Shown one piece after another: positions 12,111 to 44,202 of a stretch of DNA of 64,000 nucleotides. The position numbers and the translations under genes are program-made. The notes beneath the pieces were generated by a model, which saw only the letters and a list, made by a program, of their open reading frames with translations, did no database searches and was not told where the DNA came from. Each line of letters opens with the position of its first letter. The stretch's first letter is position 1. Origin of the DNA: Kiritimatiellia bacterium (GTDB lineage: Bacteria > Verrucomicrobiota > Kiritimatiellia > RFP12 > UBA1067); NCBI GenBank assembly GCA_045656225.1, contig JAZOQU010000039.1, forward strand, positions 523 through 64,522, read 5' to 3'.

Positions 12111-12122
12111 GGCTGGCGCATT

Positions 12123-27263: not shown

Positions 27264-27360
27264 TTGAGGCGACGAAGGCTTAATAGGCTGGGGTCATCGA
27301 GACGCGGAGAAAGTTCTTCGCCTTGAGCGGCGGTGAAAACCGTCGCTCTTGCATTTTAAG

Positions 27361-28092: not shown

Positions 28093-28581
28093 TTTACTTG
28101 CGCCTTCGGCGCGACGACTTATATCGACTTTGACGAGCGGAGGAGGAAGGAAGGCTTTACGCCGATGCCCAGACATGTCGCGCAAGTGCGACGGCATCGT
28201 CGTAAGCGCCTTATCCTTCCTTCCTCCTCCGCTCGTTAGAGTATTAATCAAATGTCAATTATTTGTGATTGTGCGACGGATATGCGGATAAATGCGCCGA
28301 AGAGCGAAGCTCGAAGGGAGATACACCTGCACCGAAGGTGTCAGGTCGCCCGACGAGCAACGCGAGGAGCTTTGCGAAGCAAAGTCGCAAGAGGCTGTGC
28401 CGCGCAGACCGAAGGTCGAGCGCACGAGCGTAGCGAAGTGGCCGCAAGGCGCCGCGATCGGCGTTTAATCTCGTGGCGTCGGAGCGAAGCGACGACAAGT
28501 CCGGCCACGAGATTAAAGCCTTCCTTCCAAGGCTTGCGCCAAAGTCGTTCTAAGTCGTCTGCCGCGTCAGCGGCAAGTAAA
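28093..28581. repeat. hairpin-mosaic element E2
   Basis: Same end modules as E1. Forward hairpin 28132-28236 and reverse hairpin 28460-28520. Shares a core with E3 and E4 (GCGCCGAAGAGCGAAGCTCGAAGGGA...), here carrying an insert of about 80 nt. Confidence 0.8.
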
Positions 28582-28878: not shown

Positions 28879-28986
28879 GGAATGGGGAACTGGGAAGAAA
28901 GACTAAAATATGAAGCGAGAAAAAGTGACTATAGATAGAGGAGATTGGTTGCATTTTTGTCTGAAAAAGCATATACTATTTCCGAC

Positions 28987-29604
28987 ATGAAAGAAAAGGA
29001 TTATTCGGAGAAAATTAGAGAGCGCGTCTCAAAGCTTAGAGATGGCGAACTTGTCGTTATGGTTGATTTTGCCGATATTGCTCCAAATAACACCGTCAAC
29101 AAAATTGTTACGAGACTTGTGGACGAGAATCTTTTGCGTCCTATTATCAGAGGAGTTTATCAAAAGCCGCTGATGAATTCATTTCTTGGCGAGCCAATAG
29201 AACCTACTGGCGAGGCTTTGGCGTTAGCAATAGCTCGAAAGAATGGATGGACGATATGTCCTAATGGAGATACCGCGCTTAATTTGCTTGGTCTTTCTAC
29301 TCAGGTTCCTGCGAATTGGAGTTTTCTTTCGAATGGTCCATATAAAGTATATAAGTTTAGCGGCGGTGAAATTCGCTTTTCTCATACGGCGAATAGATTA
29401 TTAGAGAGTTTATCAAAGGATTCAGTATTTCTAGTACAGGCATTGAGAGCTTTGGGTGAAGAGAGTACAGATGAAGAGACGCTTATGCGCCTATCTCACA
29501 ATATTTCACCTGAACGGATAAATCTAATTGAGGCCGAAACTAGGAATGTTCCAGATTGGATTCGGTCAAAAATTGCGAAATTAAAGGAGATTAAAAATGC
29601 GTAA
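28987..29604 (+). CDS. AbiEi-family (DUF6088-like) type IV antitoxin
   Basis: EKIRERVSKLRDGELVVMVDFADIAPNNTVNKIVTRLVDENLLRPIIRGVYQKP matches the AbiEi/DUF6088 N-terminal pattern. Overlaps the AbiEii gene by 8 nt. The ORF is open from a TTG at 28945. Confidence 0.7.
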   Translation: MKEKDYSEKIRERVSKLRDGELVVMVDFADIAPNNTVNKIVTRLVDENLLRPIIRGVYQKPLMNSFLGEPIEPTGEALALAIARKNGWTICPNGDTALNLLGLSTQVPANWSFLSNGPYKVYKFSGGEIRFSHTANRLLESLSKDSVFLVQALRALGEESTDEETLMRLSHNISPERINLIEAETRNVPDWIRSKIAKLKEIKNA

Positions 29605-30598
29605 TGTTGCAAGAGAAAGCGATGCCAATCTTTATGCGCTTTTTGCGAATACATCGGCTAAGAGTGGATTATCTCCTGCTGTTATAGAAAAGGACTTTTG
29701 GGTTTGTTGGCTACTTGATTACCTTTTCAGTAGATCGCCATGGAAAAATCAATTGGCGTTCAAAGGCGGTACTAGTCTCTCAAAGGCATTTGGTCTTATC
29801 AAACGCTTTTCCGAAGATGTTGACCTTATTCTTGACTGGCGGCTGCTCGGATATGAGAAAGATGAGCCTTGGCAGTCACGCAGCAATACTCAGCAAGACA
29901 TTTTTAATACGAAGGCGAATGAAAAAAGCGCCATATTCTTAAGAGATGTTTTTGCACCGAAACTCCGTGAAGATCTTGCGCGTGATCTTAATCATCCAGT
30001 TGATATCAATATAGACCCGGTAGATCCTAATACGGTTATATTTAATTATCCATGCGCATTTTCGGACGCGTCAATTCTTCGTGAAATACGTATTGAAAGT
30101 GGTAGCCTTGCCGCATGGACACCTGCGCGGCACAAGTCTATTTCACCTTATGCCGCTGAATATTATCCGCATATTTTTAAGCAGGCAGAAACATTGGTGT
30201 TTACGGTTGAGGCTGAACGGACATTTTGGGAGAAGGTTACAATTTTACATCGAGAGGCGATGCGTACAGAACGCCAAGGCCCGATGCCGCCACGTTATTC
30301 TCGGCATTATTATGACTTATGGAGTATGTGCCAAGGCGAAACTAAGGACGCTGCGCTTGCCAAGCTAAATCTTCTTGATGCGGTTGTTGAGTTTAAAAAG
30401 AAATTCTATCGTTGCGCATGGGCTAAGTACGAATTGGCGACTGCGAAGTCAATTTCGTTGATGCCGCCAGCTGCTGCAATCCCATCTTTAGAAGCGGACT
30501 ATCGTCACATGCGTAATATGATATTCGGTGAAACGCCACCATTTGAAGAGATGCTTGACTGTATAGCGAAGCTTGAAGATGAGATTCATAAGTGTTAA
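29597..30598 (+). CDS. AbiEii/AbiGii nucleotidyltransferase toxin (DUF1814)
   Basis: IEKDFWVCWLLDYLF...LAFKGGTSLSKAFGLIKRFSEDVDLIL is the hallmark N-terminal nucleotidyltransferase region. Confidence 0.8.
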   Translation: MRNVARESDANLYALFANTSAKSGLSPAVIEKDFWVCWLLDYLFSRSPWKNQLAFKGGTSLSKAFGLIKRFSEDVDLILDWRLLGYEKDEPWQSRSNTQQDIFNTKANEKSAIFLRDVFAPKLREDLARDLNHPVDINIDPVDPNTVIFNYPCAFSDASILREIRIESGSLAAWTPARHKSISPYAAEYYPHIFKQAETLVFTVEAERTFWEKVTILHREAMRTERQGPMPPRYSRHYYDLWSMCQGETKDAALAKLNLLDAVVEFKKKFYRCAWAKYELATAKSISLMPPAAAIPSLEADYRHMRNMIFGETPPFEEMLDCIAKLEDEIHKC

Positions 30599-30736: not shown

Positions 30737-31163
30737 TTTACTTGCTCCTTTGTTTTACTTGCTCCTGCGGAGCAGACGACTTATATCGACTTTGACGAGC
30801 GGAGGAGGAAGGAAGGCTTTACGCCGATGCCCGGATATGTCGCGCAAGCGCGACGGCATCGTCGTAAGCGCCTTATCCTTCCTTCCTCCTCCGCTCGTTA
30901 GAGTATTAATCAAATATCAATTATTTATGACTGTGCGACGGATATGCGGATAAATGCGCCGAAGAGCGAAGCTCGAAGGGAAGCCGCGCAGACCGAAGGT
31001 CGAGCGCACGAGCGTAGCGAAGTGGCCGCAAGGCGCCGCGATCGGCGTTTACGACGCGTCCGCCGCCGCAGGCGGCAAGTCTGGGACGCGGCGTAATGCC
31101 GACCGCATATCCGATGCACACAAAAGTCGTTCCAAGTCGTCTGCCGCGTCAGCGGCAAGTAAA
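30737..31163. repeat. hairpin-mosaic element E3
   Basis: End modules as in E1 and E2. Forward hairpin 30794-30898, nearly identical to the one in E2. Reverse hairpin 31044-31100. Long-range stem GTGCGACGGATATGCGG / CCGCATATCCGATGCAC. Confidence 0.8.
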
Positions 31164-31337
31164 ATAAAAAAACCGCGCGAGGGGTAAAAATGCCGCGGTA
31201 GCGATGGGAAAGGGAGAGAAAATAAAAAAAATTAAAAAATATTTTTAAGGGGGTTAAAAGTGCGTTTCACCCCTATTTTTATTGGGTGAGATGGCGATTA
31301 GGGTCTAAGTTCGAAGCAGAAGGGGAGTATACCCCAC

Positions 31338-31367
31338 TTTACAAACAACCCCACAATTCGCTACAAT
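31338..31367 (+). promoter_or_regulatory. sigma70-type promoter candidate for cassette A
   Basis: TTTACA, 18 nt spacer, TACAAT, about 150 nt upstream of the ATG at 31517. It lies outside the proposed invertible segment. Confidence 0.4.
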
Positions 31368-31516
31368 ATAGGTGCTTGGGCGGATAGTCGAAACTCGCGG
31401 TGAGTTTCATCTACCTTGGCGAAAATCGGAACGACGATGAGTTGGCGATCTGGGTATCGTAAATGAATCTGAGTTCTAAACCTAATCGGGCTGGGCCCCG
31501 AGAAAGTGAAAAAGAA

Positions 31517-32287
31517 ATGAAGAAACTTATGTTTGCAGCTACGGCCGCCGTCTGTGCCGCAGTAACGTTCGGATTGGAGTCCGCTAATATTGTAGGTTAT
31601 AGTCAGTCGGATGTTCGTTTGAATTTGTCACAGCAGATGCCGACCTTCGCTAATGTTGGTCAGACTTCTGTTGACATTCAGTCGATGATCCCTGTTGATG
31701 CTGATGGCGAAGTTCTTGACTATGAGTTCACCATTCAGGAAATTTCAGACCTTGGCAAGGTTATCAAGGTGTACGACTACATTCTCGCTGACTCTTCTGA
31801 CGATGGCGAAATGGAAGGCTGGTTGACCTATAATGAAGACGGTGAGCAGGAAGTTGTTGAGCGTAAGTTCGATATTGGCGAGGGCTTCTTGGTTCTTGCT
31901 ACCGCAGCTGGTAAGATGAGTTACTGTGGTGAGGTAGTTATGGGCGAGATTTGTGTTCCTGTTCGTAAGAACCTTTCTGCTCAGGGCAATATCCGTCCTA
32001 TGCCGGTTGATATTCAGACCTTGATTCCCGTTGATGCTGACGGTGAAGTTCTTGACTATGAATTCACCATTCAGGAGACAACTGACCTTGGCAAGGTTAT
32101 CAAGGTGTACGACTACATTCTCGCTGACTCTTCTGACGATGGCGAAATGGAAGGTTGGTTGACCTATAATGAAGATGGCGAGCAGGAAGTCGTTTCTCGC
32201 ACATTTAATGCTGGCGAGGGCTTCTTGATTCTTTCTACGGCTGATGAAGGGTTTCTTAAGTTCCCCGCTATTCAAACCAACAACTAA
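31517..32287 (+). CDS. cassette A gene 1: secreted protein with two tandem repeat domains of about 112 aa
   Basis: Signal peptide MKKLMFAATAAVCAAVTFG, then LESANIVGY. Internal 336-bp tandem duplication (about 31670-31905 and 32006-32241). The ORF is open from 31463. Confidence 0.75.
   Translation: MKKLMFAATAAVCAAVTFGLESANIVGYSQSDVRLNLSQQMPTFANVGQTSVDIQSMIPVDADGEVLDYEFTIQEISDLGKVIKVYDYILADSSDDGEMEGWLTYNEDGEQEVVERKFDIGEGFLVLATAAGKMSYCGEVVMGEICVPVRKNLSAQGNIRPMPVDIQTLIPVDADGEVLDYEFTIQETTDLGKVIKVYDYILADSSDDGEMEGWLTYNEDGEQEVVSRTFNAGEGFLILSTADEGFLKFPAIQTNN
31552..31600. repeat. inverted repeat IR-a, left copy (inside the gene 1 5' coding region)
   Basis: CTGTGCCGCAGTAACGTTCGGATTGGAGTCCGC (33 nt) is a perfect reverse-complement match to 41009-41041. 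Over the full repeat the match is 46/49. Confidence 0.9.
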
Positions 32288-32340
32288 TTTACTACACAGC
32301 ATAGTGTTGTGTGGATAAAACAAAAAAAAGGAAAAATAAA

Positions 32341-32895
32341 ATGAAAAAAATCATGGTAGCAGCAGCAGCGATTGCTATGGCGGTAGTTGCTAATGCGTCA
32401 TCTGTTATCTGGACATGTTCGAACGTGTTCCTCGGCAATGAAACCGACAAGTGCTCGGGTATTGCTTACTTCGTAAATGCAGACTTAATCAGCTCCACTG
32501 CCCTCAAGGCTCTTGGAGACGATGGTGCCGCTGCAATTACAACTGCTCTCGGCAGTTCGTATAGCTTCACCCCTGCCTCCGCTGGTTCTTATGTTAAGAC
32601 AGCTGCTAACGCAGTTTCAGTAGGCACGTTGGGTCTCGCTGATACAACAGCTTACACTGGTTACCTCGTAATCTTCGATGGTGCTACCATCGCTGATTCT
32701 ACGAAGTTCTACACTACTCAGGAGATGGATTTCACCACTCTTGCTGGTGATAACGCCGTTCAGGTTAAGTTCGGTTCTCAGAAGGTCAACTCGACCGACG
32801 CTGGTAATTGGACTGCTGTTGCTCCGGAGCCGACCTCTGGTCTCCTCCTCCTCATTGGCGTTGCTGGCCTCGCTCTCCGTCGCCGTCGCGCCTAA
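32341..32895 (+). CDS. cassette A gene 2: PEP-CTERM sorting-domain protein
   Basis: Signal peptide MKKIMVAAAAIAMAVVANA. C-terminus VAPEPTSGLLLLIGVAGLALRRRRA (PEP motif, TM helix, Arg cluster). Confidence 0.85.
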   Translation: MKKIMVAAAAIAMAVVANASSVIWTCSNVFLGNETDKCSGIAYFVNADLISSTALKALGDDGAAAITTALGSSYSFTPASAGSYVKTAANAVSVGTLGLADTTAYTGYLVIFDGATIADSTKFYTTQEMDFTTLAGDNAVQVKFGSQKVNSTDAGNWTAVAPEPTSGLLLLIGVAGLALRRRRA

Positions 32896-33027
32896 TTGGT
32901 TAGGAGTTAGTAGTTAGGAGTCAGGAGTTAGTAATAAGGAAGTTAAAATTCCATTGTTCAACTTGAACTTCGACTTCGACTCTAACTTAACAAAACGGTA
33001 AGCCCGTCCGATTATTCGGGCGGGCTT
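32821..33027. repeat. inverted repeat IR-b, left copy (PEP-CTERM coding end plus 3' UTR and terminator)
   Basis: Reverse complement of 39576-39781, with about 9 mismatches and 1 indel over about 207 bp by hand count. Includes the terminator hairpin AAGCCCGTCCG-ATTATT-CGGGCGGGCTT. Confidence 0.9.
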
Positions 33028-33048
33028 CAAAATTTTAAGGAGATTATT

Positions 33049-33873
33049 ATGGCTTGGAATCGTTCTATACCAAAACAAGTTAGCCCTAAAAAGAAAATAA
33101 GTCGTTTTCTTCTTTATATTTCGATACTTGGTGTAGTTATTTTGGTTATCTCCTTTTTTATAATGTCGGCATCAGAAGATGTTGTTCTCGAAGAAGACGA
33201 AACATCTTCTACACAAAAAACACCTAAGAAAAAACCCGTAAAACAGGATATTCCTAAGGAATCACTCGAAAGTGATTCTACTGTCGTTGAAACTAACACT
33301 GTAGAAGAAGCGACACCTACAGTAAAAAAAGCCAAACATAGTGGGCGATTTGTTGATGTTTCAAAGGCTATTTTTATTCCACGCAAGGATCCGCCCCGTA
33401 GATTTATCAATGACGCTGAAGAAGATGTCGCTTCACTCTTGGAGGTAATTCCAGGGGAGATGATCGTAGGCGAAATTAATTATCATAAAAAGAATCGATT
33501 TGTTAATAGTTTAAAGCAAGCGTTAGAGAATCCTACTCGTATTGACGAAAACGATTCAGCGTATTCAGTTGAATTAAAAAATTCAGTAAGAGATGTTATT
33601 AACGATTTAGCTCAGCGCATGAGAAAAGGCGAAGATGTCGCCGCGACGATGAAGCAAGCTAGATCAGAATTACAAGACCTAGGAATCTTTAGAATGGAGC
33701 TCCAAAACGAGCTAAAAAACATTCGCAAGACTACAGATGTTACAACAACTGAATATGAAGAATTTGTAGCTGTCGCGAATAAGATGTTAATTGAAAAAGG
33801 TGCAGAACCATTAAAAATTCCAAAAATCGTTTATCATCAATTGAAGTTAAGAGAAGAAAGGAAAGAAAAATGA
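33049..33873 (+). CDS. cassette A gene 3: N-terminally membrane-anchored protein, unknown function
   Basis: AAGGAG RBS. Starts MAWNRS..., followed by the TM helix FLLYISILGVVILVISFFIM. Positional counterpart of 38167..39057 (MGWNGS...). Confidence 0.7.
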   Translation: MAWNRSIPKQVSPKKKISRFLLYISILGVVILVISFFIMSASEDVVLEEDETSSTQKTPKKKPVKQDIPKESLESDSTVVETNTVEEATPTVKKAKHSGRFVDVSKAIFIPRKDPPRRFINDAEEDVASLLEVIPGEMIVGEINYHKKNRFVNSLKQALENPTRIDENDSAYSVELKNSVRDVINDLAQRMRKGEDVAATMKQARSELQDLGIFRMELQNELKNIRKTTDVTTTEYEEFVAVANKMLIEKGAEPLKIPKIVYHQLKLREERKEK

Positions 33874-34700
33874 AATTAGCTGTATATTGCGTTGTTGCCT
33901 TGCTTGGGGTTGCTTCTTTTGCTAAGGATAAAACCCCATTGCATTTGACATCTGCTGAAGAATTTAAGGCTAGGAAAGCTGAATTTGATGCATTGACACC
34001 AGAGCAGAAGAATGAATTCCGTCAGAAAAGAATTGCCTTTCATAAGGAGAAGGCTGGTGGTGTTGTTAGGGATACGCGCGGAATGTCAGGAACGGTATAT
34101 GTAATCAATGCTCAGAAAAATATCTCAACGGATGATGTTAAAAAGCCTGTTGAGTGGTTACAGAACTACTTAAAAGTGCAGTTTAAGGTCATTGATGGCG
34201 CTTATGTTCATAGGGATACGGCTTATTCTTTTAGGCAAAAGAACAAAGCTAATGCTATCATTGTAGTTTATGATGACCCTAAAGAGTCCGCCTCTATTCT
34301 CGTTGCCCCTGAATCCCGTTGGGGTTCTATTAATATAGCTCAATTAGGCACTGACAATCTTGTTGAAAGAACTCAGAAGGAAATTTCAAGAACGATTGCT
34401 TTTGTTTGCGGAGGTATCAGCAGCCAATATCACCCAACACTTGGATCTCACGTAGATTCGCCATCGTTTTTGGATAAGGTTGATGGCTATGATTTACCCG
34501 TAGATATTCTTCTTTCAATTCGTCAATTTCTCCCTCAATTAGGTGTAAGACCATATAGAGACGTAATGTATCGTAAGGCATGTCGTGAAGGCTGGGCTCC
34601 TGCTCCGACAAATGATGTCCAAAAAGCTATTTGGAATGAAATCCACGCTACTCCGAAGAATCCTATGAAGATTGAATTCGATCCTAAGAAAGGTCGATGA
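33870..34700 (+). CDS. cassette A gene 4: secreted protein, unknown function
   Basis: Signal peptide MKLAVYCVVALLGVASFA. The C-terminus EGWAPAPTNDVQKAIWNEIHATPKNPMKIEFDPKKGR is conserved in the paralog at 37298..38149. 4-nt overlaps with both neighbouring genes. Confidence 0.75.
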   Translation: MKLAVYCVVALLGVASFAKDKTPLHLTSAEEFKARKAEFDALTPEQKNEFRQKRIAFHKEKAGGVVRDTRGMSGTVYVINAQKNISTDDVKKPVEWLQNYLKVQFKVIDGAYVHRDTAYSFRQKNKANAIIVVYDDPKESASILVAPESRWGSINIAQLGTDNLVERTQKEISRTIAFVCGGISSQYHPTLGSHVDSPSFLDKVDGYDLPVDILLSIRQFLPQLGVRPYRDVMYRKACREGWAPAPTNDVQKAIWNEIHATPKNPMKIEFDPKKGR

Positions 34701-35488
34701 AATACACCTACGCATATAAGACCTCTGACGGGGTGCGGCATGAAGAAACTATGAATGCCGCATCTCGCGAAGAGGTTTTTACTGCGCTACGAGCCAAGGG
34801 CATAAAGGCGATTAAGGTTGTCGCCGCTGACGGATCTAAAGCCAATGGCGAAGTGCGCGGCATCCGCAAACGAGTAGTTGCAGCGATTGTTATTATCGTT
34901 GCTGTAGCTGTTGGTGCTATCGCTTATTTCGGCGGCTCACAATCTAAAACCGATAGCATTTCAAACACAACCTCTAACCAAAATTCCAATGCTATCGCAG
35001 TCATTGAGAGTCCAACTCAAGACAATGCGAGACGACAGGTTATTGGCGATGTCGCTATAATCGAAAAAGGCATCCGCAACGGATGGAGCGACGTCTTTGA
35101 ACTTGAGGGCGATAGGTTTCTCGCCTCGTTCGCCATCCCTGGCGTAAAGGCAGGTCAGCGTAATACTTCCGAAAAGGAATTCGCAGCAGCGCTTGAGAAT
35201 AAATGCGAGATTAAGCCTAATGACTCAATCGAAGTCAAACAGATAAAAGCGATGGTCGAGGGGATGAAAGACGAGGCTCGCCGTTACATCGCTGCTGGTG
35301 GCTCAATTGTCTCTTATGGTAAAAGACTTACCGAGAGACAAGACGCTGAGATTGCTATTTATGAAAGAATCAAAGCCGATCTCGAAAAGGCTCATTCATC
35401 TATGAGCGAAGATGAATACATGATTTACTGGGAAAAGCGGAATGACGAACTTAGAAATCTTGGGATTAAGACGATTGGGCTGGAGTGA
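34697..35488 (+). CDS. cassette A gene 5: single-pass membrane protein with a GspF/PilC-N-terminus-like motif
   Basis: MKYTYAYKTSDGVRHEETMNAASREEVFTALRAKGIKAIKV resembles the F-Y-A-D-G...A-S...L...G motif of T2SS/T4P platform protein N-termini. One TM helix. Roughly three-quarters identical by eye to 36504..37301. Confidence 0.7.
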   Translation: MKYTYAYKTSDGVRHEETMNAASREEVFTALRAKGIKAIKVVAADGSKANGEVRGIRKRVVAAIVIIVAVAVGAIAYFGGSQSKTDSISNTTSNQNSNAIAVIESPTQDNARRQVIGDVAIIEKGIRNGWSDVFELEGDRFLASFAIPGVKAGQRNTSEKEFAAALENKCEIKPNDSIEVKQIKAMVEGMKDEARRYIAAGGSIVSYGKRLTERQDAEIAIYERIKADLEKAHSSMSEDEYMIYWEKRNDELRNLGIKTIGLE

Positions 35489-35581
35489 GGGGCGGTAGAA
35501 GGTTTTAGGTGAAGGTTAGAGGTGAAGGTGAACAGCGGAATTTGAGATTTTCCCTCTTCCCACTTCCTTTAGTAGTTCTTC

Positions 35582-35803
35582 TTAATCAAAGAGCTCAGGC
35601 TCGTTTTCGATTAGATCTGCCGCAAGGTATTTATAATCAAGATTATCAATACCATAAAGCCCCTCAGCAATTTGGTTGCAAAGGCGACTACGATAATAAA
35701 TGTCAGTAGCAGAGCGAATATCTATCTTACGCATTTTACTTAGCTCGCTAATGATGTCTATAGACAAATCTTGCCGATAAATATCTACCTCTGACTTTTT
35801 CAT
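35582..35803 (-). CDS. small hypothetical protein (possibly DUF3791-like)
   Basis: 73-aa ORF in tandem with the DUF3791-like ORF upstream. Family similarity is weak. Confidence 0.4.
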   Translation of the reverse strand: MKKSEVDIYRQDLSIDIISELSKMRKIDIRSATDIYYRSRLCNQIAEGLYGIDNLDYKYLAADLIENEPELFD

Positions 35804-35895
35804 GTTATTACATCTTAATTATCCGAGATCCAAGCGACCTTTAGCCTTTGTAAGATCTGGGATTTTGACTTCGCAAATACTACCATGGTAAACAG

Positions 35896-36117
35896 TCATG
35901 CGATTTCGTACCCCCAATCCTTGACGCAACCAGTTACATCATCAACAAGATATTCCTTACCTAACGTGTGTAACACATCATAATGGAGAATAAGATAATT
36001 ATCTAAAACTTTGGAATTATTCAAAATAGAATACACCTTCTGCGGGGACATGTGCCATGCCTCCGCAAGGGCGTGAATCATAAAGACCACAAAAACAAGT
36101 ACAGAACGATTAGCCAT
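35896..36117 (-). CDS. DUF3791-like small protein
   Basis: 73 aa. The pattern ...AEAWHMSPQKVYSILNNSKVLDNYLILHYDVLHTLGKEYLVDDV resembles DUF3791 family members. Confidence 0.5.
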   Translation of the reverse strand: MANRSVLVFVVFMIHALAEAWHMSPQKVYSILNNSKVLDNYLILHYDVLHTLGKEYLVDDVTGCVKDWGYEIA

Positions 36118-36243
36118 AAGTTATGTCAACATTATACCAAAAAACTAATTAGATAGGAGCGGAAAAATAAAACCAATAGCGAAGTCTGGGAAAAGAAAAA
36201 CGAGGCATTGCGCTGCCTAAGTAAGACCAAAACTTAAAACTCG

Positions 36244-36486
36244 CTTCGTCAGAATGTACTCAGTGTCTCCAGTGTTGTGCTTTTCGTGTAGCCTCCGAAG
36301 GAGGCGTTTTTGTGTCCCACGAATGTGGGCTTTCGTGTTTGGGAGCGCGGCAAAAGCCGTAGGCTTTAGACGAGACGATGCGCTATGGGTGACGCGTTAA
36401 GCGACAAACCCAATAGCGCATTGGCGAGTCGTTAATCGCGTTAACGATTTGCCGCGCTCACAACTTTCGTGGTCGCGCGGAGCGCC
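36244..36486 (+). repeat. structured repeat family N, copy N3
   Basis: TTTTCGTGTAG-CCTCCGAAGGAGG-CGTTTTTGTG-TCCCACGAATGTGGG-CTTTCGTGTTTGG, then the closing stem GAGCGCGGCAAA/TTTGCCGCGCTC. The architecture is the same as N1 but the stem sequences differ. Confidence 0.7.
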
Positions 36487-36503
36487 ACACTAATCACTAA
36501 TGA

Positions 36504-37301
36504 TTATTCTAGCCCTACCGTCTTAATTCCTAAATTTCTAAGCTCTTCGTTGCGGCGTTCCCAGACGTCCATGAAGTCGTCTTCGTTAAGCGATTCTTTA
36601 GCCTTTTCAATTTCTGACTTTATCCTCTCGTAGATTGCGATTTCTGCGTCTTGGCGTTCTGTTAGGCGCTTACCATAGTCGACGATTGTGCCGCCCGCTG
36701 CGATATATTGCCGCGCTTCGTCTTTCATTCCCTCGACCATCGCTTTAATTTGACGCGCTTCAGGCGAATCGGCAGGGAGGATCTCGCACTTTGAATTTAT
36801 CGCAGCTTCAAATTCTTTAAGCGAAGTGTTGCGCTGACCAGCCTTAACGCCAGGAATCGCGAAGCTCGCTAAGAACCTATCTCCTTCGAGCGCGAAGACA
36901 TCTGCCCACCCAGTGCGAATACCCTTAGCTACGATCGCTTCATCACCGAAAACTTGGCGGCGGGTTTTATCGACATTCGCCAAGTTCGCATAGGGATTAC
37001 TCTCAGCCTTACCTAATGATTCTTTGGCGCTCTCAGGCACGTTGTTTACCGCGCTCTTGCTTCCGCTAAAGTAGGCTGCAACACCTACGCCAAGTGCAAC
37101 AGACGCCACAAGAGCCACAACACCGCGCTTTCTAAGGCCGCGAACCTCTCCGTTAGCTTTAGAGCCGTCAGCAGCGACAACTTTAATCGCTTTTATGCCG
37201 CGTTTACGCAATTCAGCGAACACCTCTTCTCTCGAAGAGGCGTTCATTGTATCTTCATGACGTATTCCGTCACTCGACTTATATGCGTAAGTATATTTCA
37301 T
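36504..37301 (-). CDS. cassette B gene 5 (paralog of 34697..35488)
   Basis: MKYTYAYKSSDGIRHEDTMNASSREEVFAELRKRGIKAIKVVAADGSKANGEVRG.... High identity to the A copy at both termini. Confidence 0.75.
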   Translation of the reverse strand: MKYTYAYKSSDGIRHEDTMNASSREEVFAELRKRGIKAIKVVAADGSKANGEVRGLRKRGVVALVASVALGVGVAAYFSGSKSAVNNVPESAKESLGKAESNPYANLANVDKTRRQVFGDEAIVAKGIRTGWADVFALEGDRFLASFAIPGVKAGQRNTSLKEFEAAINSKCEILPADSPEARQIKAMVEGMKDEARQYIAAGGTIVDYGKRLTERQDAEIAIYERIKSEIEKAKESLNEDDFMDVWERRNEELRNLGIKTVGLE

Positions 37302-38149
37302 CGACCTTTCTTAGGATCGAACTGAATTTTCATTGGATTTTTGGGGGCGGCGCGGACTTCGTCCCAAACAGCCTTTTGGTACTCGTTCGTTGGCTGGGGC
37401 GCCCAGCCTTCCATGACTGCGAGTTTATAGGGGATATGACGCGCTCTTTTAACGCCGAACTTAGCCATTTGAGCGTACATCTTTTGGAAGTTCATAGGCT
37501 GCATAACTTGATAAACGAGCGCGTCGAGTTCCTTAAGATTATAAACTGGCTGAAGTACATCGTTCTTATAGGGCGCGTAACCGATACCGCCTACAAAGCC
37601 AAGCGCTCTCCAAACTTCCTTAATAAGTCTCGTCTCTGGCGCGAGAGGATCATTGCCGCCGAGATAACGCTTAGCATTGATAACTGCGATACGCTCCTCT
37701 GGCATTACGCAAAGACCAGGGCAATCGCCAGATTCAGCGATGAGAATCACATACGCGGCATTATTAGCCTTAAGCGCGGCGAGCGCTTTGGCGTATGGCT
37801 TTTCGTTCGCGTTAAGCTTTGACTTATCAATCTTAATATTCGTCTTAGATAAATCGCCGAATACTTCGGCGAAGCGATCTGCCGCGATGCCGGGCTTTTC
37901 GCGTGTATCAACTACGACTACGCTTACGCCAACTGCCGCGACATCGAGAAAGCCGCCTGTCTTTTTAAGGACTGCCGGGCGATTTTCAAGTTCAGCGCGA
38001 GTTTGCTTTTTATCAGCCTTTTTCTGACCTTCAGCCGCCTTTAGAGCTGCTGCTTCAGCCATCTTTTTAATTTGGTCTTCTTGGGCGTTATTAGCGAGAA
38101 TGGGAGCCGTGATAAGAAGCGCGGCGATTATACTTAGAGTAGCTTTCAT
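37298..38149 (-). CDS. cassette B gene 4 (paralog of 33870..34700)
   Basis: Signal peptide MKATLSIIAALLITAPILA. Conserved C-terminus EGWAPQPTNEYQKAVWDEVRAAPKNPMKIQFDPKKGR. Confidence 0.75.
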   Translation of the reverse strand: MKATLSIIAALLITAPILANNAQEDQIKKMAEAAALKAAEGQKKADKKQTRAELENRPAVLKKTGGFLDVAAVGVSVVVVDTREKPGIAADRFAEVFGDLSKTNIKIDKSKLNANEKPYAKALAALKANNAAYVILIAESGDCPGLCVMPEERIAVINAKRYLGGNDPLAPETRLIKEVWRALGFVGGIGYAPYKNDVLQPVYNLKELDALVYQVMQPMNFQKMYAQMAKFGVKRARHIPYKLAVMEGWAPQPTNEYQKAVWDEVRAAPKNPMKIQFDPKKGR

Positions 38150-38166
38150 ATTGTGAACCTTAATCC

Positions 38167-39057
38167 TTAATTGGAGTCTTTATGAGCGTCAATAATATCG
38201 TTAATGTGTTTAGGAATTTTAGCGTCAGGTAAGCCTAATTCTCTAAACTTTTGATTTAAAGTATCGCGATAGAGCGCGGCGGATTTAGCGTCACCTTTTT
38301 TGAGAAATCCTACAATATCCTTTAAGGTTGACGCGGTTAAGCCCTTTTGAATGGTAGCGGTTTGGCGCATTTCCATTACAAATTCATCGAAGCTCGCGCC
38401 AGTAGTTTCCATATAATCAAGCGCGAGTTCCTTAACTTCAGCGGCGGCTGTCTTTTTGCGGATGACTTCTTCGCTGTCATCGGGGTTAATTGTAACAGGT
38501 TTACGAAGCATTTTCATAACCTCAGCTTTATCTAAGCCCATAAGCATACCAGGGATAAACGATCCGTTTTGAAGATTCATGCCAATAAGATTCTCTTCAA
38601 AGGCGTTGTCGAATACAGGCTTAGGAGTAATATCTACCCAATTACCCTCATGATCACATTTATACACAGCGCCATGAGAGTGTACAGTTCTAAATTCACC
38701 GGGAGCAGGAACGGGGAAGGTTAAAACGCGACCATCGGGCGTTTGCATTGTGCCAGGCTTTTTAACGAATGGGGGCTTTTCCTTTTTTTGCGCGGCAAGG
38801 GGCTTCTCGGTCTTTTTAACGAGATTGGTCGAGGTCTTAGGCGTGGGAACGCGCTTTTTAGGGGTGTCGGTTTGCGCAATGGGCGCGGATTCGGGCTTAG
38901 AGAGGAAGAAATAAAGCACGATGCCGCCAAATAACGCGATAAGGGCGCAGATAGCGTATGGTACAACGCGCAGCTTGCGCGTTGACTTAGGAGTATCATT
39001 TTTCTTGAACGAGCTAGCAGCTCGTTCTACTACTTTATCTGATCCATTCCAACCCAT
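38167..39057 (-). CDS. cassette B gene 3: N-terminally membrane-anchored protein
   Basis: Starts MGWNGS..., with the TM helix VVPYAICALIALFGGIVLYFFL. Same position and topology as 33049..33873 but highly diverged. Confidence 0.7.
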   Translation of the reverse strand: MGWNGSDKVVERAASSFKKNDTPKSTRKLRVVPYAICALIALFGGIVLYFFLSKPESAPIAQTDTPKKRVPTPKTSTNLVKKTEKPLAAQKKEKPPFVKKPGTMQTPDGRVLTFPVPAPGEFRTVHSHGAVYKCDHEGNWVDITPKPVFDNAFEENLIGMNLQNGSFIPGMLMGLDKAEVMKMLRKPVTINPDDSEEVIRKKTAAAEVKELALDYMETTGASFDEFVMEMRQTATIQKGLTASTLKDIVGFLKKGDAKSAALYRDTLNQKFRELGLPDAKIPKHINDIIDAHKDSN

Positions 39058-39076
39058 AAGTTTTCTTTCTGTTTAT

Positions 39077-39563
39077 TTTTACTTGCCGCGTTCCGCGGCA
39101 GACGACTTAGATCGACTTTTATATGCTCCGGACGTACGGTAGGCTTTCCGTTGCGCCCCGGACTTGTCGCCTGCGGCGACGGGCGCAACGCAAACGCCTA
39201 TCCTCCCGTCCGTCCGTCGCATAAAGGAGTTAATTATTACACCTGCGCATGACTTGGAAGGAGATGCGCCGAAGAGCGAAGCTCGAAGGGAAGCCGCGCA
39301 GACCGAAGGTCGAGCGCACGAGCGTAGCGAAGTGGCCGCAAGGCGCCGCGATAAGGCGCTTAATCTCGTGGCGTCGGAGCGAAGCGACGACAAGTCCGGC
39401 CACGAGATTAAAGCCTTCCTTCCAAGGCTTGCGCTAAAGTCGTTCCAAGTCGTCTGCACCGCAGGAGCAAGTAAATCAAAACTAACCAACCACGAGCTTA
39501 AAGCTTCCTTACAAGGCTTGCGCCAAAGTCGTTCCAAGTCGTCGCGCCGTAGGCGCAGTAAAA
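39077..39563. repeat. hairpin-mosaic element E4 (insertion relative to cassette A)
   Basis: Same end modules as E1-E3 (two at the right end). Forward hairpin 39123-39222 and reverse hairpin 39354-39415. It occupies the gene 2 - gene 3 spacer, which in cassette A (33028-33048) is only about 20 bp. Confidence 0.8.
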
Positions 39564-39575
39564 CTTAAAGTTAGA

Positions 39576-39781
39576 AAGCCCGCCCGAATAATCGGACGGG
39601 CTTACCGTTTTGTTTAGTTAGAGTCGAAGTCGAAGTTGAAGTCGAACAATGGAATTTAACTTCCTTATTACTAACTCCTGACTCCTAACTACTAACTCCT
39701 AACCTATTAGGCGCGGCGGCGACGGAGAGCGAGGCCAGCAACGCCAAGGAGGAGGAGAAGACCAGAGGTCGGCTCCGGAGC
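39576..39781. repeat. inverted repeat IR-b, right copy
   Basis: See 32821-33027. Confidence 0.9.
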
Positions 39782-40228
39782 AACCTCGAAGCTGTTGTTC
39801 GCGAGGTTGGTAGCCTGATTGCCGAAACCGAAGGTCTTGGACTGCGAGTCGTTCTCCATCATGATGGAAGCGACAGACGTGACCGAAGCAGAGGTGCCAT
39901 CAGCGCCCCAGATAACGGCGAAAGCCTGATAGGTGTCCGTACCGCTGCCGCTGTAAGTGATAGTCTTGCCAGAGGTAGCAGCAGAGGCATTAGCCATACC
40001 GGTATTGCCAACCGTACCATTTGCGAACGCATAGGCAGAAGTGTCAGTACCAGCAGCAACGAGAGCGGTGATCTGATCAACAGATGTAACACCGTTCTGA
40101 CCGATTACGTAAACAGAGTAATCGCTGTTTTTGTAAGCGGTAGCACCCATCATCGACCAACCGACAGCAGCCGCGTTAGCCATCGCAGCCATCGCAACGG
40201 CGGCTACGAGAATCATGATTTTCTTCAT
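39707..40228 (-). CDS. cassette B gene 2: PEP-CTERM sorting-domain protein
   Basis: MKKIMILVAAVAMAAMANA signal peptide. C-terminus VAPEPTSGLLLLLGVAGLALRRRRA. The ORF is open from 40306. Confidence 0.85.
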   Translation of the reverse strand: MKKIMILVAAVAMAAMANAAAVGWSMMGATAYKNSDYSVYVIGQNGVTSVDQITALVAAGTDTSAYAFANGTVGNTGMANASAATSGKTITYSGSGTDTYQAFAVIWGADGTSASVTSVASIMMENDSQSKTFGFGNQATNLANNSFEVAPEPTSGLLLLLGVAGLALRRRRA

Positions 40229-40293
40229 TTTTTGTTTTCCTTTTTTTTGTTTTAGGCACGTTACACCATGCAACGCACGTAAATTGTTTTGAC

Positions 40294-41019
40294 TTAATAG
40301 GGGCAAGCAATCTCAATGTTGAACGTAAGGCTGTTCATATTATCGATAGCGAAGCCAGCACCAGGTTCGATTGTAACATTAACGGGAGTACCCATTTCAT
40401 CGCCCCAGAAGTTACCAGCCTCTTCACCAGCAGGATTCATCGACTTGTCAAAGTAGAAATAAATCGTTTCAGCGCTGCCGAGAGGACCAACAATCTGCAT
40501 CGTATCGCCCCAGCCAACAGTAGGCATTTCGCCAGTAGGCGTACCATCGTTGAGCTGAATAGCATTGATATTAATGGCAGCAGGGAAGGGGTTGCCCGTC
40601 CAATTGAAGTTAGCGCGAGCAGGGATGGAAACCTTGGCAGTAGGAACTTCACCTGCAGTGCGGATCTTGAACTCAAGACCGTTCATGTTATCAATCGCAA
40701 TACCATCGCCGGAATCGAACGAAACAGCAACAGGCGTACCCATTTCGTCGCCCCAGAAGTTACCAGCCTCTTCACCAGCAGGATTCATCGACTTGTCAAA
40801 GTAGAAGTAAATCGTTTCAGCACTGCCGAGAGGTCCAACGATCTGCATCGTGTCGCCCCAACCAACTGTAGGCATTTCGCCAACAGGAGTGCCGTCATCA
40901 AGCTGAATGGCGTTTATGTCGGTGGTATTAGCACCAGCCGTGACGAACATAGGAGCATACCAGTTAAAGTTAGCACGCGCATCCGTGTTATTATACCCAA
41001 CAATATTCGCGGACTCCAA
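40294..41019 (-). CDS. cassette B gene 1: 5'-truncated (no ATG, no signal peptide) tandem-repeat protein, candidate silent cassette
   Basis: Begins at ..LESANIVGY, where only a TTG is available. Homology to the cassette A gene starts exactly at IR-a. Two repeats of about 115 aa share a near-identical 50-aa core (DNA 40729-40878 and 40381-40530). Confidence 0.6.
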   Translation of the reverse strand: MESANIVGYNNTDARANFNWYAPMFVTAGANTTDINAIQLDDGTPVGEMPTVGWGDTMQIVGPLGSAETIYFYFDKSMNPAGEEAGNFWGDEMGTPVAVSFDSGDGIAIDNMNGLEFKIRTAGEVPTAKVSIPARANFNWTGNPFPAAININAIQLNDGTPTGEMPTVGWGDTMQIVGPLGSAETIYFYFDKSMNPAGEEAGNFWGDEMGTPVNVTIEPGAGFAIDNMNSLTFNIEIACPY

Positions 41020-41041
41020 TCCGAACGTTACTGCGGCACAG
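40993..41041. repeat. inverted repeat IR-a, right copy
   Basis: See 31552-31600. The outer boundary lies inside the palindrome GTTACTG-CGGCA-CAGTAAC (41027-41045). Confidence 0.9.
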
Positions 41042-41124
41042 TAACATTTATTTACATTATTCTACGAGCGAATGAATGCAGAATACAGTAATAAAATGTA
41101 AAATAGAGGGCAAAAAGGAGAAAT

Positions 41125-41991
41125 ATGACACCGACTATTGCGCAAGTAATAAAATGCTACAAAATAATCGCTGATATTGAGCGGGCGAAGACTGGGCGGC
41201 CTGGGGAAGGGACGAAGAAAAATGTCTTGAGAGGTACGGTTGCTGTTTGTAATGCTGCCGGGATAGCGTTGAGCGATAGTGTTGAGGTGTTGACGCGAAG
41301 GGCGATAGATAGGGCGCTAGCTGATTTTATGGTTCGGGGAATGACGCGGCTTTCGGCGTGGAGCTATATTTGTAAATTAAGGGGGCTTTTCGCTAAATGG
41401 TGTCTGCCATATTATAAGGACGCTGGGTGGGAAATACCGAAGTTGGAGTTGCCGGTGTTTCGAGCGCAGGCGCCGCGTTATATTAGACCGTCGAGCGAGT
41501 TGTTGGCAAGGGTTAAAAACTGGTACAGGTTGCAGAAGGGCGAGTATTGGTTCGCGGCGACGATGATGCTCGAGTTCGCTATGAGAAATGGAGATGTATT
41601 AAGGCTTACGGATTCTAATTTTGTTGAGAATGATAATGGTAAGTTTTTGTCGTATACGCCGCATAAAACTGAACTTACGTCTGCGCGGCGGGTTTATTGG
41701 CCGATCCATCCAGAGATATGGCAGAAGTTCGAGGATTATGGGCGATTAGCGGGACTGGATGTTACGAATGAGACATTCGAGGACATAAATCGCGATTTAC
41801 GGAATCTTGGATTTCACGGCTCAAAGGCAGCGTATGAATTGCGCAAGATTTGTATCGACCATATCTATCAGAAGTTTGGTGCAGAAATGGCAGTATCTAT
41901 CTCAGGTGATGACATCCGCACCATTACGAAATATTACGCCGACCCCGCCCAACCGAATATCGGAGCGGTTAGGGTCTTGGATTTGCTTTAA
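41125..41991 (+). CDS. tyrosine recombinase-like protein (divergent family member)
   Basis: 288 aa. Box I-like MRNGDVLRL. The segment HKTELTSARRVYWPIHPE resembles the Lys-containing beta-hairpin. Box II-like AYELRKICIDH, with Tyr in place of the first His. C-terminal ISGDDIRTITKYY provides a candidate nucleophile Tyr. It is divergently oriented, 84 bp from IR-a. Confidence 0.55.
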   Translation: MTPTIAQVIKCYKIIADIERAKTGRPGEGTKKNVLRGTVAVCNAAGIALSDSVEVLTRRAIDRALADFMVRGMTRLSAWSYICKLRGLFAKWCLPYYKDAGWEIPKLELPVFRAQAPRYIRPSSELLARVKNWYRLQKGEYWFAATMMLEFAMRNGDVLRLTDSNFVENDNGKFLSYTPHKTELTSARRVYWPIHPEIWQKFEDYGRLAGLDVTNETFEDINRDLRNLGFHGSKAAYELRKICIDHIYQKFGAEMAVSISGDDIRTITKYYADPAQPNIGAVRVLDLL

Positions 41992-42181: not shown

Positions 42182-42379
42182 ATGGTTCCTATGGAGTCGT
42201 TTGTTAAGAGGACGATAGGCGATTCAGCAAGGGTAATGGAGGCGGTCTTTGATGAGGAGCGTACGACCGATGAGCTTATAGACGCTATCGCTGATTTGGC
42301 AGCGGGCTTAAATCCTATCGTCAGAGACGCAAGACGAGTAAGCGAGAACCTGGAGAAGGAGGATGAGGACGAGGATTAA
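42182..42379 (+). CDS. hypothetical small acidic protein
   Basis: Short ORF, open from 42098, with the acidic tail EKEDEDED. A TGATATAAT -10 candidate lies near 42066. No family recognised. Confidence 0.3.
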   Translation: MVPMESFVKRTIGDSARVMEAVFDEERTTDELIDAIADLAAGLNPIVRDARRVSENLEKEDEDED

Positions 42380-43071
42380 GGAAGCTGCTTGTTATTGAGG
42401 AACTTAAGCTCGTTATGTTTGAATGCTCTTGCACCACCGAAGAACCTATGTTCGCTTTCGGAAAGCTTCTCACCAGTTTCGAGCTTAAGTTTTACCAGAG
42501 TAAGAGTGCAGATTAAATCAGCAAGCTGGAATAATTTGTAATTTCGAGGAAGGACGCCCTGTGCGAAATCCACGGGGCAGCCGATGTCTGAAAAATATTT
42601 ATGAAGGAGATTTGTAATCGGCGCTTGACCGCAGTCGTAGTACACCTTAACCTTGCCAAGTCTTGAAAGCATGTCTTTATGATTGATTATAAAATCATTA
42701 AGTTGTGTTCCAAGACGTGAGACAATCTGAAGAGTAGAACTGATATATTTCTTATCAACGCTTAAACAATGATAGCGAAAATTCATCTTTCTGGCAAAAC
42801 TAAGCATTCTTGCGTAGATTTTCCCTCGCATGTGTCTTGAGAAGTATTCATAACCCTTTTCGCGACGAATGAGAGGCCCAGCATGAAAAATGAATGTGTC
42901 TTTATCTATACCAATTGACTCAAGAGACTGTTCGTAGTCGGCAATCAACTTGGATATGTCGATAGACTGGTCATGAAAAATCATGCCTAAAATATAAAAG
43001 CGAGAATCTTTGTCTGGATACTGAAAGCATCCAGATTCATCCACAAATATACTTAAAACATTATTATTCAT
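42376..43071 (-). CDS. DUF3800 domain protein (paralog 2)
   Basis: MNNNVLSIFVDESGCF.... Paralogous along its whole length to 27361..28053. The ORF is open from 43125. Confidence 0.7.
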   Translation of the reverse strand: MNNNVLSIFVDESGCFQYPDKDSRFYILGMIFHDQSIDISKLIADYEQSLESIGIDKDTFIFHAGPLIRREKGYEYFSRHMRGKIYARMLSFARKMNFRYHCLSVDKKYISSTLQIVSRLGTQLNDFIINHKDMLSRLGKVKVYYDCGQAPITNLLHKYFSDIGCPVDFAQGVLPRNYKLFQLADLICTLTLVKLKLETGEKLSESEHRFFGGARAFKHNELKFLNNKQLP

Positions 43072-43539
43072 TCTTAAAAAAACGAAAGTGACGAGAATTA
43101 CTTCCCGCCACTCACACGGGGACATTTCCCCGCATCAAGGTGATCCCTTCCTTGGGGATGAGACCACGTATATTTTAGCATAAGGAAATTGTAGCCGCAA
43201 GTGCCAATTTAGCATATTCGTTTTATGGTATTAGTTTGCGGGGATTTGACCACATTGGTGGGGGCAGACTGGTGGGGTGAATATTTTTATGCTATTGGAG
43301 TTACGCAAGGAACTTGGTATTAACAGTGCAAATTATTACATCGCAATATTTGACTCCAATGAAAAGAGAAGGATATATTGAAATTGAAAAAGGGGTTAAT
43401 ATGTGTAATTCGCGCGTAGACCCTCGGATTCAGTTGTGGGGGAATGGGGTTAGAGGCCGCTCCGCGGCGGTACACTAAGCGAGGCGAAGCCGAGGTAGCC
43501 AAGGCCGAAGGCCGCAGCCCCGAAGGGGTGCTCCAAGCA

Positions 43540-43762
43540 GCCGCAAAACTGAGTCGGTGACGAATCGTGCATTCGCACGATTGAATCGTCGCTGTCCGCC
43601 CTCATTTTGAGGCTTTGCCTCAGAGGTGCGTCCATCTCCGATTCACCCTATCGGGTTTCGTCACTCGCCTCAGACACGAAAGCCCTACGGGACACGAAAG
43701 CGTCTCCTTCGGAGACTTACACGAAAATGCAACATTTGAGAAGCTTTGTACAATCTACGAAG
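43540..43762 (-). repeat. structured repeat family N, copy N4
   Basis: The reverse complement reads CTTCGTAGATTGTAC...TTTTCGTGTAAG-TCTCCGAAGGAGA-CGCTTTCGTG-TCCCGTAGGGC-TTTCGTGTCTGAGGCGAGTGACGAAACCCGATAGGGTG.... Confidence 0.7.
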
Positions 43763-44202
43763 TTTGTCAATTTTGGCACAAATAGGTCTGACCTTGTTGT
43801 GCCACTTTTACACTCTCACGGCAATGTCCAATTGTCTTGGATTGACGCGGCGAGCGATGTTAATGACGCGTATCAACTTAACCCATCATAGCCTTACGAA
43901 GTAGATTGTAAGAGGAAGGGCACTATCAAGTCACTGACTAAGCGAAGCGCAAAAACGTATCATCCTTATTATAAATCCTCTATTTAGCGAAGTGTGGATT
44001 AAGCGGAGGTCTTCGAGTGAGACTCGCGAAGGATTGTAGCCGTAAGAGAGACTTTGTACGCAACCAGTGACGTTGTTGTGGCGTTCCCGGAGTAAGCGTT
44101 CTAACTTGTCTAGATAGTAAAGGCGTTACAATTCCGTAGCGAGTCGAGACCGAGAAGACGCTCCGTTAATCCACCGTAGCTCCTCACTTTCGTGGTTCGC
44201 GG

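Follow-up and report, generated by a model that had tools for sequence, protein, structure and literature searches.

A 64-kb stretch of DNA from a Kiritimatiellia bacterium (GenBank assembly GCA_045656225.1, contig JAZOQU010000039.1; this whole stretch is called the window below, and coordinates count from its first letter) contains two paralogous five-gene cassettes that face each other, together with a neighbouring gene for a 288-amino-acid (aa) protein that looks like a divergent tyrosine recombinase. We consider it very probable that the locus is a site-specific inversion switch between the cassettes, i.e. a shufflon with a single expression site. It shows the features by which programmed inversions are recognized: inverted repeats lie inside two homologous, tail-to-tail genes near their 5' ends, only one of the two genes has the stretch from start codon to repeat, and a recombinase gene is adjacent. 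Inversion variants within a species, a further feature of such systems, are found in related species (contigs L020-L022 as compared to L016, and the branching leaders of metagenome JAEIGA01, see below).

Cassette A is on the plus strand (31517-35488) and cassette B on the minus strand (41019-36504), so that the listing of open reading frames (ORFs) confirms the original prediction, made from the letters of the window alone, of two facing paralogous cassettes. All five ORFs of cassette B are intact. The divergence of the two copies drops from the 5' to the 3' end: the gene 1 products are 29% identical, those of gene 2 are similar only in their PEP-CTERM tail, the similarity of gene 3 is not significant, gene 4 reaches 37% identity (in the C-terminal half) and gene 5 reaches 69%. 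The earlier remark that the first three products are nearly unrelated between the copies is thus borne out. A search of the 64 kb for further cassettes or site copies gave no third one.

The two copies of gene 1 differ at their 5' ends. In copy A the reading frame runs through a hydrophobic leader into the mature protein, MKKLMFAATAAV-CAAVTFGLESANIVGY, while the same frame of copy B reads ...*NNVNKCY-CAAVTFGLESANIVGY, with an in-frame TAA 7 codons before the Cys and neither an ATG nor a leader; here the upstream stop adds to what had been noticed earlier, namely that copy B lacks a start and a signal peptide. The promoter-like site, the ATG and the leader are found in copy A only (coordinates are given in Table 1).

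The outer inverted repeat lies in gene 1, where the signal-peptide codons end. Its arms are 67 nucleotides (nt) long and 87% complementary, and they share a perfect 33-nt core, CTGTGCCGCAGTAACGTTCGGATTGGAGTCCGC. A hand count had given a 49-bp repeat with 46 matches and 33 perfect nucleotides; direct reading of this stretch returns the same 46/49. There are exactly two copies of the core in the window, and none appeared in 100 shuffles even when up to three mismatches were allowed. The site starts with CTGTGCCGCAGT, the codons for Cys-Ala-Ala-Val, and continues into the conserved mature N-terminus ...ESANIVGY. The recombinase gene at 41125 begins 83 nt beyond the repeat, a short gap as described before, where 84 bp had been counted.

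Across the groups of related loci the core that is kept is CTGYGCNRCWGT, an imperfect CTG-N5-CAG palindrome that codes for Cys-Ala-(Ala/Thr)-Val, and the junction motif of the relatives is CTG(T/C)GCC(G/A)CAGT. The left edge of homology is in all groups the C of CTG(T/C)GC..., and the right edge may follow after as few as 13 nt (group P0015). The palindrome at 41027-41045, which had been put forward as the core site of the recombinase, is present, but only its inner CTG-N5-CAG is conserved across species. We considered the outer arms GTTA...TAAC as a part of the core; other silent sites (L027, L016) do not keep them, and they are therefore not counted in it. These arms belong to the fixed flank on the recombinase side. 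A scan of species-representative genomes with the core pattern returned one chance match only, in Nocardia.

According to the proposed mechanism, the fixed expression site (31166-31563 with the start of the recombination site) would provide the promoter, the 5' untranslated region, the start codon and the first 12-16 codons of the signal peptide. The recombinase would synapse both sites and invert the approximately 9.4 kb between them, whereby the leader would be joined in frame to gene 1 of cassette B, the promoter would drive B genes 1-5, and cassette A would be parked headless beside the recombinase gene. The predicted products are a junction of 31551 with the reverse complement of 40992 and below (leader followed by ...ESANIVGYNNTDARANF) and a reciprocal junction, in which the recombinase flank would be followed by ...ESANIVGYSQSDVRL. 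The product of the adjacent gene is most likely the catalyst of this inversion.

The evidence for switching comes from related loci. The comparison set consisted of public-metagenome contigs coding for identical copies of several homologous recombinases, and it comprised 9 groups including that of the window. The whole arrangement, i.e. a fixed promoter and leader, a 5'-truncated silent cassette, a site at the junction and an adjacent recombinase, recurs in seven of the eight other groups, and the recombinase adjoins a cassette in 8 of the 9 sampled. In group P0015, whose recombinase is 75% identical to that of the window, contig L016 has five headless copies of gene 1 in both orientations, each starting exactly at CTGTGCCACAGT. 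L022 corresponds to an inverted L016 7305-8703 joined to the recombinase flank, and both L021 and L020 correspond to an inverted L016 5931-6228 joined to the same flank, in each case at 100% identity. The junctions fall in the shared site CTGTGCCACAGT, and the rearrangements are simple inversions between pairs of sites. A comparison of related assemblies for both orientations had been suggested as a check of the original prediction, and it is these alternative junctions and identical inverted segments that it brought to light.

In group P0040 (human gut samples, including Hadza) one recombinase with one fixed flank is followed by three unrelated gene-1 bodies that diverge just past the site, and five further contigs end in or at the site. 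L001 and L002 of group P0001 (recombinase 95% identical) diverge directly after GTTACTGTGCCGCAGTAACTTTCG, whereas L003 and L004 terminate exactly at ...CAGTAAC. The same recombinase is followed in group P0005 by two different headless cassettes after CTGTGCGACAGTC, and cassettes also lie beside the recombinase in groups P0095 and P0116, where L036 combines an expression site with several silent modules.

Metagenome JAEIGA01 is closer to the window. Two contigs of this one assembly, L024 and L026, have in common a 145-nt window-type promoter/leader end (96.6% identical to 31456-31600), after which they branch into two different gene-1 bodies; a third body is found in L027 beside a recombinase 96.8% identical to that of the window. 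In proteins P0278 and P0276 an identical leader is fused to a B-family gene 1, and P0278 also has the same upstream ORF; the homologues of B gene 1 with a leader are P0272, P0276 and P0278, and P0275 is one without. Finally, a fusion of the expression-site flank (84% to 31372-31599) with a B-like cassette occurs in L028; this cassette is colinear with cassette B of the window in all five genes (77-83% at the nucleotide level), and an A-like gene 5 (89%) is in the silent orientation. Judged by sequence comparison, L028 has, in a diverged relative, the arrangement predicted for the window after inversion. The region upstream of the site is kept ahead of different cassettes (90% identity in L016, 96.6% in L024/L026 and 84% in L028). 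The idea that inversion swaps the whole operon is supported by these relatives and can be refined, since the shuffled unit (e.g. in L016 and L036) is often a module of gene 1 and gene 2 with a single set of genes 3-5. Up to five silent copies are present in the relatives.

The 288-aa protein was assigned by structure and by profile. Its AlphaFold (AF2) model (predicted local distance difference test, pLDDT, 78) has a two-domain fold, consisting of a helical core-binding domain and a catalytic domain. All of the top 50 Foldseek matches in the PDB are tyrosine recombinases (Cre, XerH, Tn1549 Int, lambda Int, IntI, XerA), the best being Cre (E 2e-4), and the catalytic domain of P2 integrase superposes with a template modelling (TM) score of 0.6 and a root mean square deviation of 3.2-3.6 Å over 144 columns. 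When the family profile was aligned to lambda Int by hhalign (probability 85%, E 6e-6, 264 columns), R154, K181, Y237, R240, D262 and Y271 were paired with Int R212, K235, H308, R311, H333 and Y342 (established numbering of Int); with Cre, hhalign aligned only the Arg-I/Lys segment, at no significance. Seven residues, among them R154, K181, R240 and Y271, are invariant in an alignment of 47 family members that reaches down to 25% identity, and Y237 is at least 90% conserved. Because fold, profile alignment and invariant catalytic residues agree, we treat the protein as a tyrosine recombinase, as the original prediction did. It looks like a member of the superfamily with two non-canonical active-site positions, and its catalysis is predicted from model and sequence.

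This family is nearly invisible to sequence searches. Neither phmmer with the protein nor a search with the family profile matched any sequence in the PDB, and the best E-values of distant family members against curated models are 0.04-0.08. Among 784 close homologues none is named, and those with a taxon label come from metagenome-assembled genomes of Kiritimatiellae; clusters related to it number only 185 among 1.84 billion representatives, and none of them has a Pfam match. Exact look-ups of three proteins of the window gave no record. A tblastn search with five tyrosine-recombinase queries revealed no other gene of this kind in the 64-kb window.

A second, inner inverted repeat, with 130 nt at 97% and a further 94 nt at 93% (about 222 nt in all), is longer and more identical than the outer one. 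It covers the PEP-CTERM tail of gene 2 and a GC-rich hairpin downstream of that gene, recurs at 92-95% on unrelated modules of L024, L026 and L028, and is conserved far above coding need and above the surrounding genes. We considered it as a second site of the recombinase, but it lacks the core motif and is for this reason read as a homogenised module end (sorting signal plus hairpin). Possibly, judging from its sequence, homologous recombination also acts on it and re-assorts genes 1-2 with genes 3-5. Another candidate that we rejected is an invertible promoter (inverton) of the fimS, Bacteroides or Akkermansia type: the conserved promoter/leader region 31166-31551 is fixed outside the repeats and it is the cassettes downstream that differ, so the promoter is not in the inverted DNA and the locus is not an invertible promoter.

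There are several points that weigh against an inversion switch driven by the adjacent recombinase. The recombinase of the window has no match at E <= 0.1 in Pfam (including PF00589, Phage_integrase) or NCBIfam; the search against hidden Markov models that had been proposed for this protein was thus successful only in part, with a weak match to the PHROG_1 integrase (E 7e-4) and the hhalign alignment to lambda Int on its positive side. Two canonical positions are substituted, His-II of the HxxR motif by Tyr (Y237) and His/Trp-III by Asp (D262). These two positions are less strictly conserved than the others in the tyrosine recombinase superfamily. In group P0108 the recombinase (71% identical) adjoins no cassette or site, which means either that the family is not always linked to its presumed substrate or that it acts at a distance. 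The P0108 gene was seen in five samples (L031-L035) in a stable housekeeping context (PrmA, a solute-binding protein and a sulfatase), with no core motif nearby. The promoter is a hexamer match: TTTACA-18-TACAAT is the joint-best in the region with 10/12 positions, tied with three others, and the count of such matches is at chance level. Of the elements that had been listed for copy A only, i.e. promoter, ribosome-binding site, ATG and signal peptide, all are present, but owing to this chance frequency we speak of a putative promoter at 31338-31367. Most comparative cases come from different samples and may reflect strain replacement instead of switching within a population, and we infer both the switching in the window's own strain and the transcriptional silence of cassette B from sequence.

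Some of these points lead to other explanations. The switching could be real and yet depend on RecA, by homologous recombination between the repeats as at the sap locus of Campylobacter fetus, the neighbouring recombinase having nothing to do with it. The repeats are indeed long and nearly identical (33 nt perfect, and about 222 nt at 93-97%), the active site of the recombinase is non-canonical and the P0108 recombinase is distant from any cassette. However, the P0015 junctions share no more than about 13-20 nt (CTGTGCCACAGTC...), a short stretch for an exchange by RecA; the inversions are nevertheless precise, and in every group they occur at the same motif. In addition, recombinase and cassette have stayed together in 8 of the 9 groups even though the flank on the other side differs each time. 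We therefore regard this explanation as unlikely. It is also conceivable that the locus is static in the strain of the window, cassette B being an old duplicate without a 5' end and the differences between assemblies being gene replacements at the strain level. What speaks for a static locus is that the alternative orientation is known from relatives and not from the same strain, and that the P0040 contigs L006, L007 and L008 hold unrelated cassettes which are not inverted versions of each other. But the silent cassette keeps five intact ORFs and a perfect 33-nt site, segments of L016 recur exactly inverted, at 100%, in L020, L021 and L022, two contigs share the 145-nt leader end and then branch within one metagenome assembly, and many contigs break at the site. 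A static locus seems slightly less probable still than exchange by RecA.

Finally, the cassettes might travel, together with toxin-antitoxin or defence genes, on a mobile island whose integrase is the 288-aa protein, the repeats being by-products of duplication within the island. The neighbourhood is rich in accessory elements (AbiEii, DUF3800, PDC-M13-like genes and MITE-like repeats, i.e. repeats resembling miniature inverted-repeat transposable elements), and PF00589 integrases are found near the loci in L001 and L016. On the other hand, the locus is not bordered by att-like direct repeats, its site is inverted rather than direct and falls on the same gene-1 codon in all groups, and the rearrangements observed are inversions, not excisions. 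This origin is in our view very improbable. The reading that we prefer is an inversion switch catalysed by the adjacent recombinase.

Table 1. Features of the locus; coordinates refer to the 64-kb window.
Feature	Position	Strand	Remarks
Fixed expression site	31166-31551	+	promoter-like TTTACA-18-TACAAT 31338-31367 (putative); ~150-nt 5' untranslated region; GAGAAAG resembling a ribosome-binding site; ATG 31517; leader codons MKKLMFAATAAV
Predicted recombination site at the expression site (outer inverted repeat arm)	31552-31618	+	perfect core 31552-31584; conserved motif CTGTGCCGCAGT 31552-31563; encodes CAAVTFGLESANIVGY
Predicted recombination site beside the recombinase gene (outer inverted repeat arm)	40975-41041	-	perfect core 41009-41041; palindrome GTTACTG-CGGCA-CAGTAAC 41027-41045
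Cassette A, ORFs 1-5	31517-32287, 32338-32895, 33049-33873, 33870-34700, 34697-35488	+	
Cassette A gene 1, secreted protein with internal tandem duplication	31517-32287	+	units 31670-31910 / 32006-32246, 86%
Cassette A gene 2, signal peptide and PEP-CTERM sorting domain	32338-32895	+	TIGR02595, 25.2 bits
Cassette A genes 3-5	33049-35488	+	N-terminally anchored protein; secreted protein with conserved C-terminus; protein with weakly GspF-N-like N-terminus and hydrophobic stretch
Inner inverted repeat arm, cassette A	32818-33039	+	PEP-CTERM tail of gene 2 and hairpin (AAGCCCGTCC...GGGCGGGCTT)
Spacer between the cassettes, two 73-aa genes	35582-35803, 35896-36117	-	DUF3791; PADLOC candidate PDC-M13 A/C
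Cassette B, ORFs 1-5	41019-40294, 40228-39707, 39057-38167, 38149-37298, 37301-36504	-	
Cassette B genes 5, 4 and 3, putative silent copy	36504-39057	-	ORFs intact; colinear with the expressed cassette of L028
MITE-like element between B gene 3 and B gene 2	~39061-39543		terminal inverted repeats GCAGACGACTT..ATCGACTTT at 39098-39119 / 39436-39457
Inner inverted repeat arm, cassette B	39564-39784	-	PEP-CTERM tail and hairpin
Cassette B gene 2, PEP-CTERM sorting domain	39707-40228	-	TIGR02595, 23.3 bits
Cassette B gene 1, 5'-truncated	40294-41040	-	reading frame starts at the site; no ATG, no leader
Divergent tyrosine recombinase, 288 aa	41125-41991	+	predicted catalytic residues R154, K181, Y237, R240, D262, Y271

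The cargo itself has few recognizable features. When the cassette proteins were compared to Pfam, NCBIfam, PADLOC, PHROG and the PDB, no credible match was obtained except for the PEP-CTERM tail of gene 2, which in both cassettes scores above the TIGR02595 cut-off of 16 bits and consists of a PEP motif, a hydrophobic helix and a basic tail at the C-terminus (tail VAPEPTSGLLLL(I/L)GVAGLALRRRRA). Gene 1 has an internal duplication in both cassettes (31670-32246 and 40316-40917), with units of about 240-254 nt that are 83-86% identical at a spacing of 336-348 nt, and the two halves of a gene are closer to each other than A gene 1 is to B gene 1. The model of a B-type gene 1 product (pLDDT 82) contains two tandem beta-sandwich domains to which the units correspond; no significant structural neighbours of this model were found by Foldseek in the PDB (best E 0.4). 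Gene 5 matches the GspF model TIGR02120 only at E 0.08, with weak T2SSF_N matches in orthologues. Within the proposed mechanism, gene 1 would code for a variable secreted protein, gene 2 for a variable, exosortase-sorted PEP-CTERM surface protein, and genes 3-5 for three progressively more conserved envelope or accessory proteins. The most reasonable reading of the cargo is a variable surface or secreted structure, and the biological effect of its exchange is likely to be a reversible variation of the cell surface, e.g. to escape from phage or from host antibody.

The two spacer genes are in the invertible segment but outside the cassettes. At the corresponding place, RelB/YafQ is found in L001, and an AAA_14/DUF4143 gene together with AbiEi/AbiEii in L028; taken together, it looks as if toxin-antitoxin or defence genes accumulate in this gap of the invertible segment. 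Genes for DUF3800 proteins occur on either side of the locus (27349-28053, 42376-43125), and the expression site is directly preceded by a DUF6088 and AbiEii toxin pair (28945-30598). The MITE-like element of cassette B is one of four copies of about 350-450 bp in the window (26798-27176, 28110-28562, 30772-31144 and 39098-39457), with the terminal inverted repeat consensus GCAGACGACTT(A/G)(T/G)A(T/A)CGACTTT; two copies share an internal segment of 89 nt at 100% (30954-31042 / 39264-39352), and one copy precedes the putative promoter of the expression site by about 200 bp. A different, palindromic repeat, TGGCACAAATAGGTCTGACCTTCTTGTGCCA, forms hairpin pairs in L001 (6048-6083, 9789-9909) and L002 (5848-5968), and in both contigs two copies of it are inserted between the recombination site and the recombinase gene. 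A related copy is found at 43746-43817 of the window, about 1.8 kb downstream of the recombinase.

Two expression sites or cassettes in the relatives have an unusual context. L016 has, at 10950-17556, a promoter, leader and site copy of the window type (leader and core identical, about 90% over the 430-nt upstream region) that runs into ...ESANIVG and a stop; what comes next is not a cassette but a 6.5-kb block that includes genes for an HNH protein and a 681-aa PF00589 integrase. This expression site has the core CTGTGCCGCAGTAAC, unlike the five silent sites of the contig, which have CTGTGCCACAGTC. Cassette A of L001 has neither leader nor site, and a PF00589 integrase directly adjoins it. 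In these two cases the expression site may be a target of mobile elements or may be disrupted by them.

It is instructive to compare the locus to known switches. From what is generally known of them, the systems that it resembles most closely appear to be vsa/HvsR of Mycoplasma pulmonis and the SusC/SusD shufflons of Bacteroides. The vsa locus has one expression site with a promoter, a start and signal-peptide codons, and silent genes without a 5' end, which are inverted by the tyrosine recombinase HvsR. In both, the junction has a short site that lies within coding sequence, the locus itself encodes a tyrosine recombinase, and inversion is the event. The differences are that vsa swaps single lipoprotein genes rather than a five-gene operon (or a two-gene module, as in the relatives), that the host is a member of the Kiritimatiellae in the Planctomycetes-Verrucomicrobia-Chlamydiae (PVC) group, and that the recombinase, in which Tyr and Asp take the place of His at two canonical positions, falls into a very divergent clade of its own. 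In the R64 shufflon the tyrosine recombinase Rci inverts segments between short repeats and thereby varies the C-terminal tip of pilV. There, too, alternative coding segments are joined to the constant 5' part of one gene, but here nearly the whole protein and the downstream genes change, and the constant part is only the signal peptide. The sap locus of Campylobacter fetus has one promoter, promoterless homologues, conserved 5' regions of several hundred base pairs and large RecA-dependent inversions. It is similar in that large inversions put a new homologue behind a single promoter, and it differs from the present system, in which a dedicated recombinase gene accompanies the cassettes and the shared core measures, at its shortest, about 13 nt.

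Gene-altering programmed inversions, such as the SusC/SusD shufflons of Bacteroides, have inverted repeats near the 5' ends of tail-to-tail genes or operons, one copy of which lacks the stretch from start to repeat (Milman et al. 2023, PMC9881135). In the same survey a recombinase is close by and intra-species variants occur, and the cases confirmed by long reads come from Actinobacteria, Bacteroidetes, Firmicutes and Proteobacteria, with no mention of PEP-CTERM proteins, Kiritimatiellae, Verrucomicrobia or Lentisphaerae (PMC9881135). The locus in the window shares the logic of these inversions, and its cargo is an uncharacterised operon. In Akkermansia muciniphila, invertible promoters near PEP-CTERM genes switch between ON and OFF, the cited example being <200 bp long (PMC11892184). 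Again a gut bacterium of the PVC group varies the expression of PEP-CTERM surface proteins by DNA inversion; the promoter proposed here, however, is fixed outside the inverted DNA, and the inversion would exchange coding cassettes of 1.4-9.4 kb behind a shared leader. A full-text literature search found no paper linking Kiritimatiellae with shufflons or inversions, nor one linking PEP-CTERM proteins with cassette inversion. This kind of mechanism is already known, whereas the lineage, the cargo and the recombinase clade appear undescribed.

On balance we lean slightly towards a broader proposal, namely that a so far unrecognised clade of tyrosine recombinases in the Kiritimatiellae of animal and human guts, invisible to Pfam and with the active-site residues R-K-Y-R-D-Y, drives shufflons that range from two modules to a whole operon, with up to five silent cassettes, and re-head alternative PEP-CTERM surface modules with one signal peptide, that this would be the main system of antigenic or phage-receptor variation in these bacteria, and that recombinase and site would constitute a new compact pair.

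Kiritimatiellae are common but barely cultured inhabitants of rumen and gut, and we know of nothing reported on variation of their surface. Even though the mechanism class itself is not new, the locus would give this lineage a cassette switching comparable to that of mycoplasmas and Bacteroides. The recombinase family is labelled "hypothetical" by standard annotation, which points to an annotation gap, and since assemblies break at the locus, it also explains a recurring problem of metagenome assembly. With its short conserved core, CTGYGCNRCWGT, this small recombinase might be worth characterising as a tool. For the biology of these bacteria, the locus points to a set of surface proteins under diversifying selection, candidates for phage receptors or immune targets.

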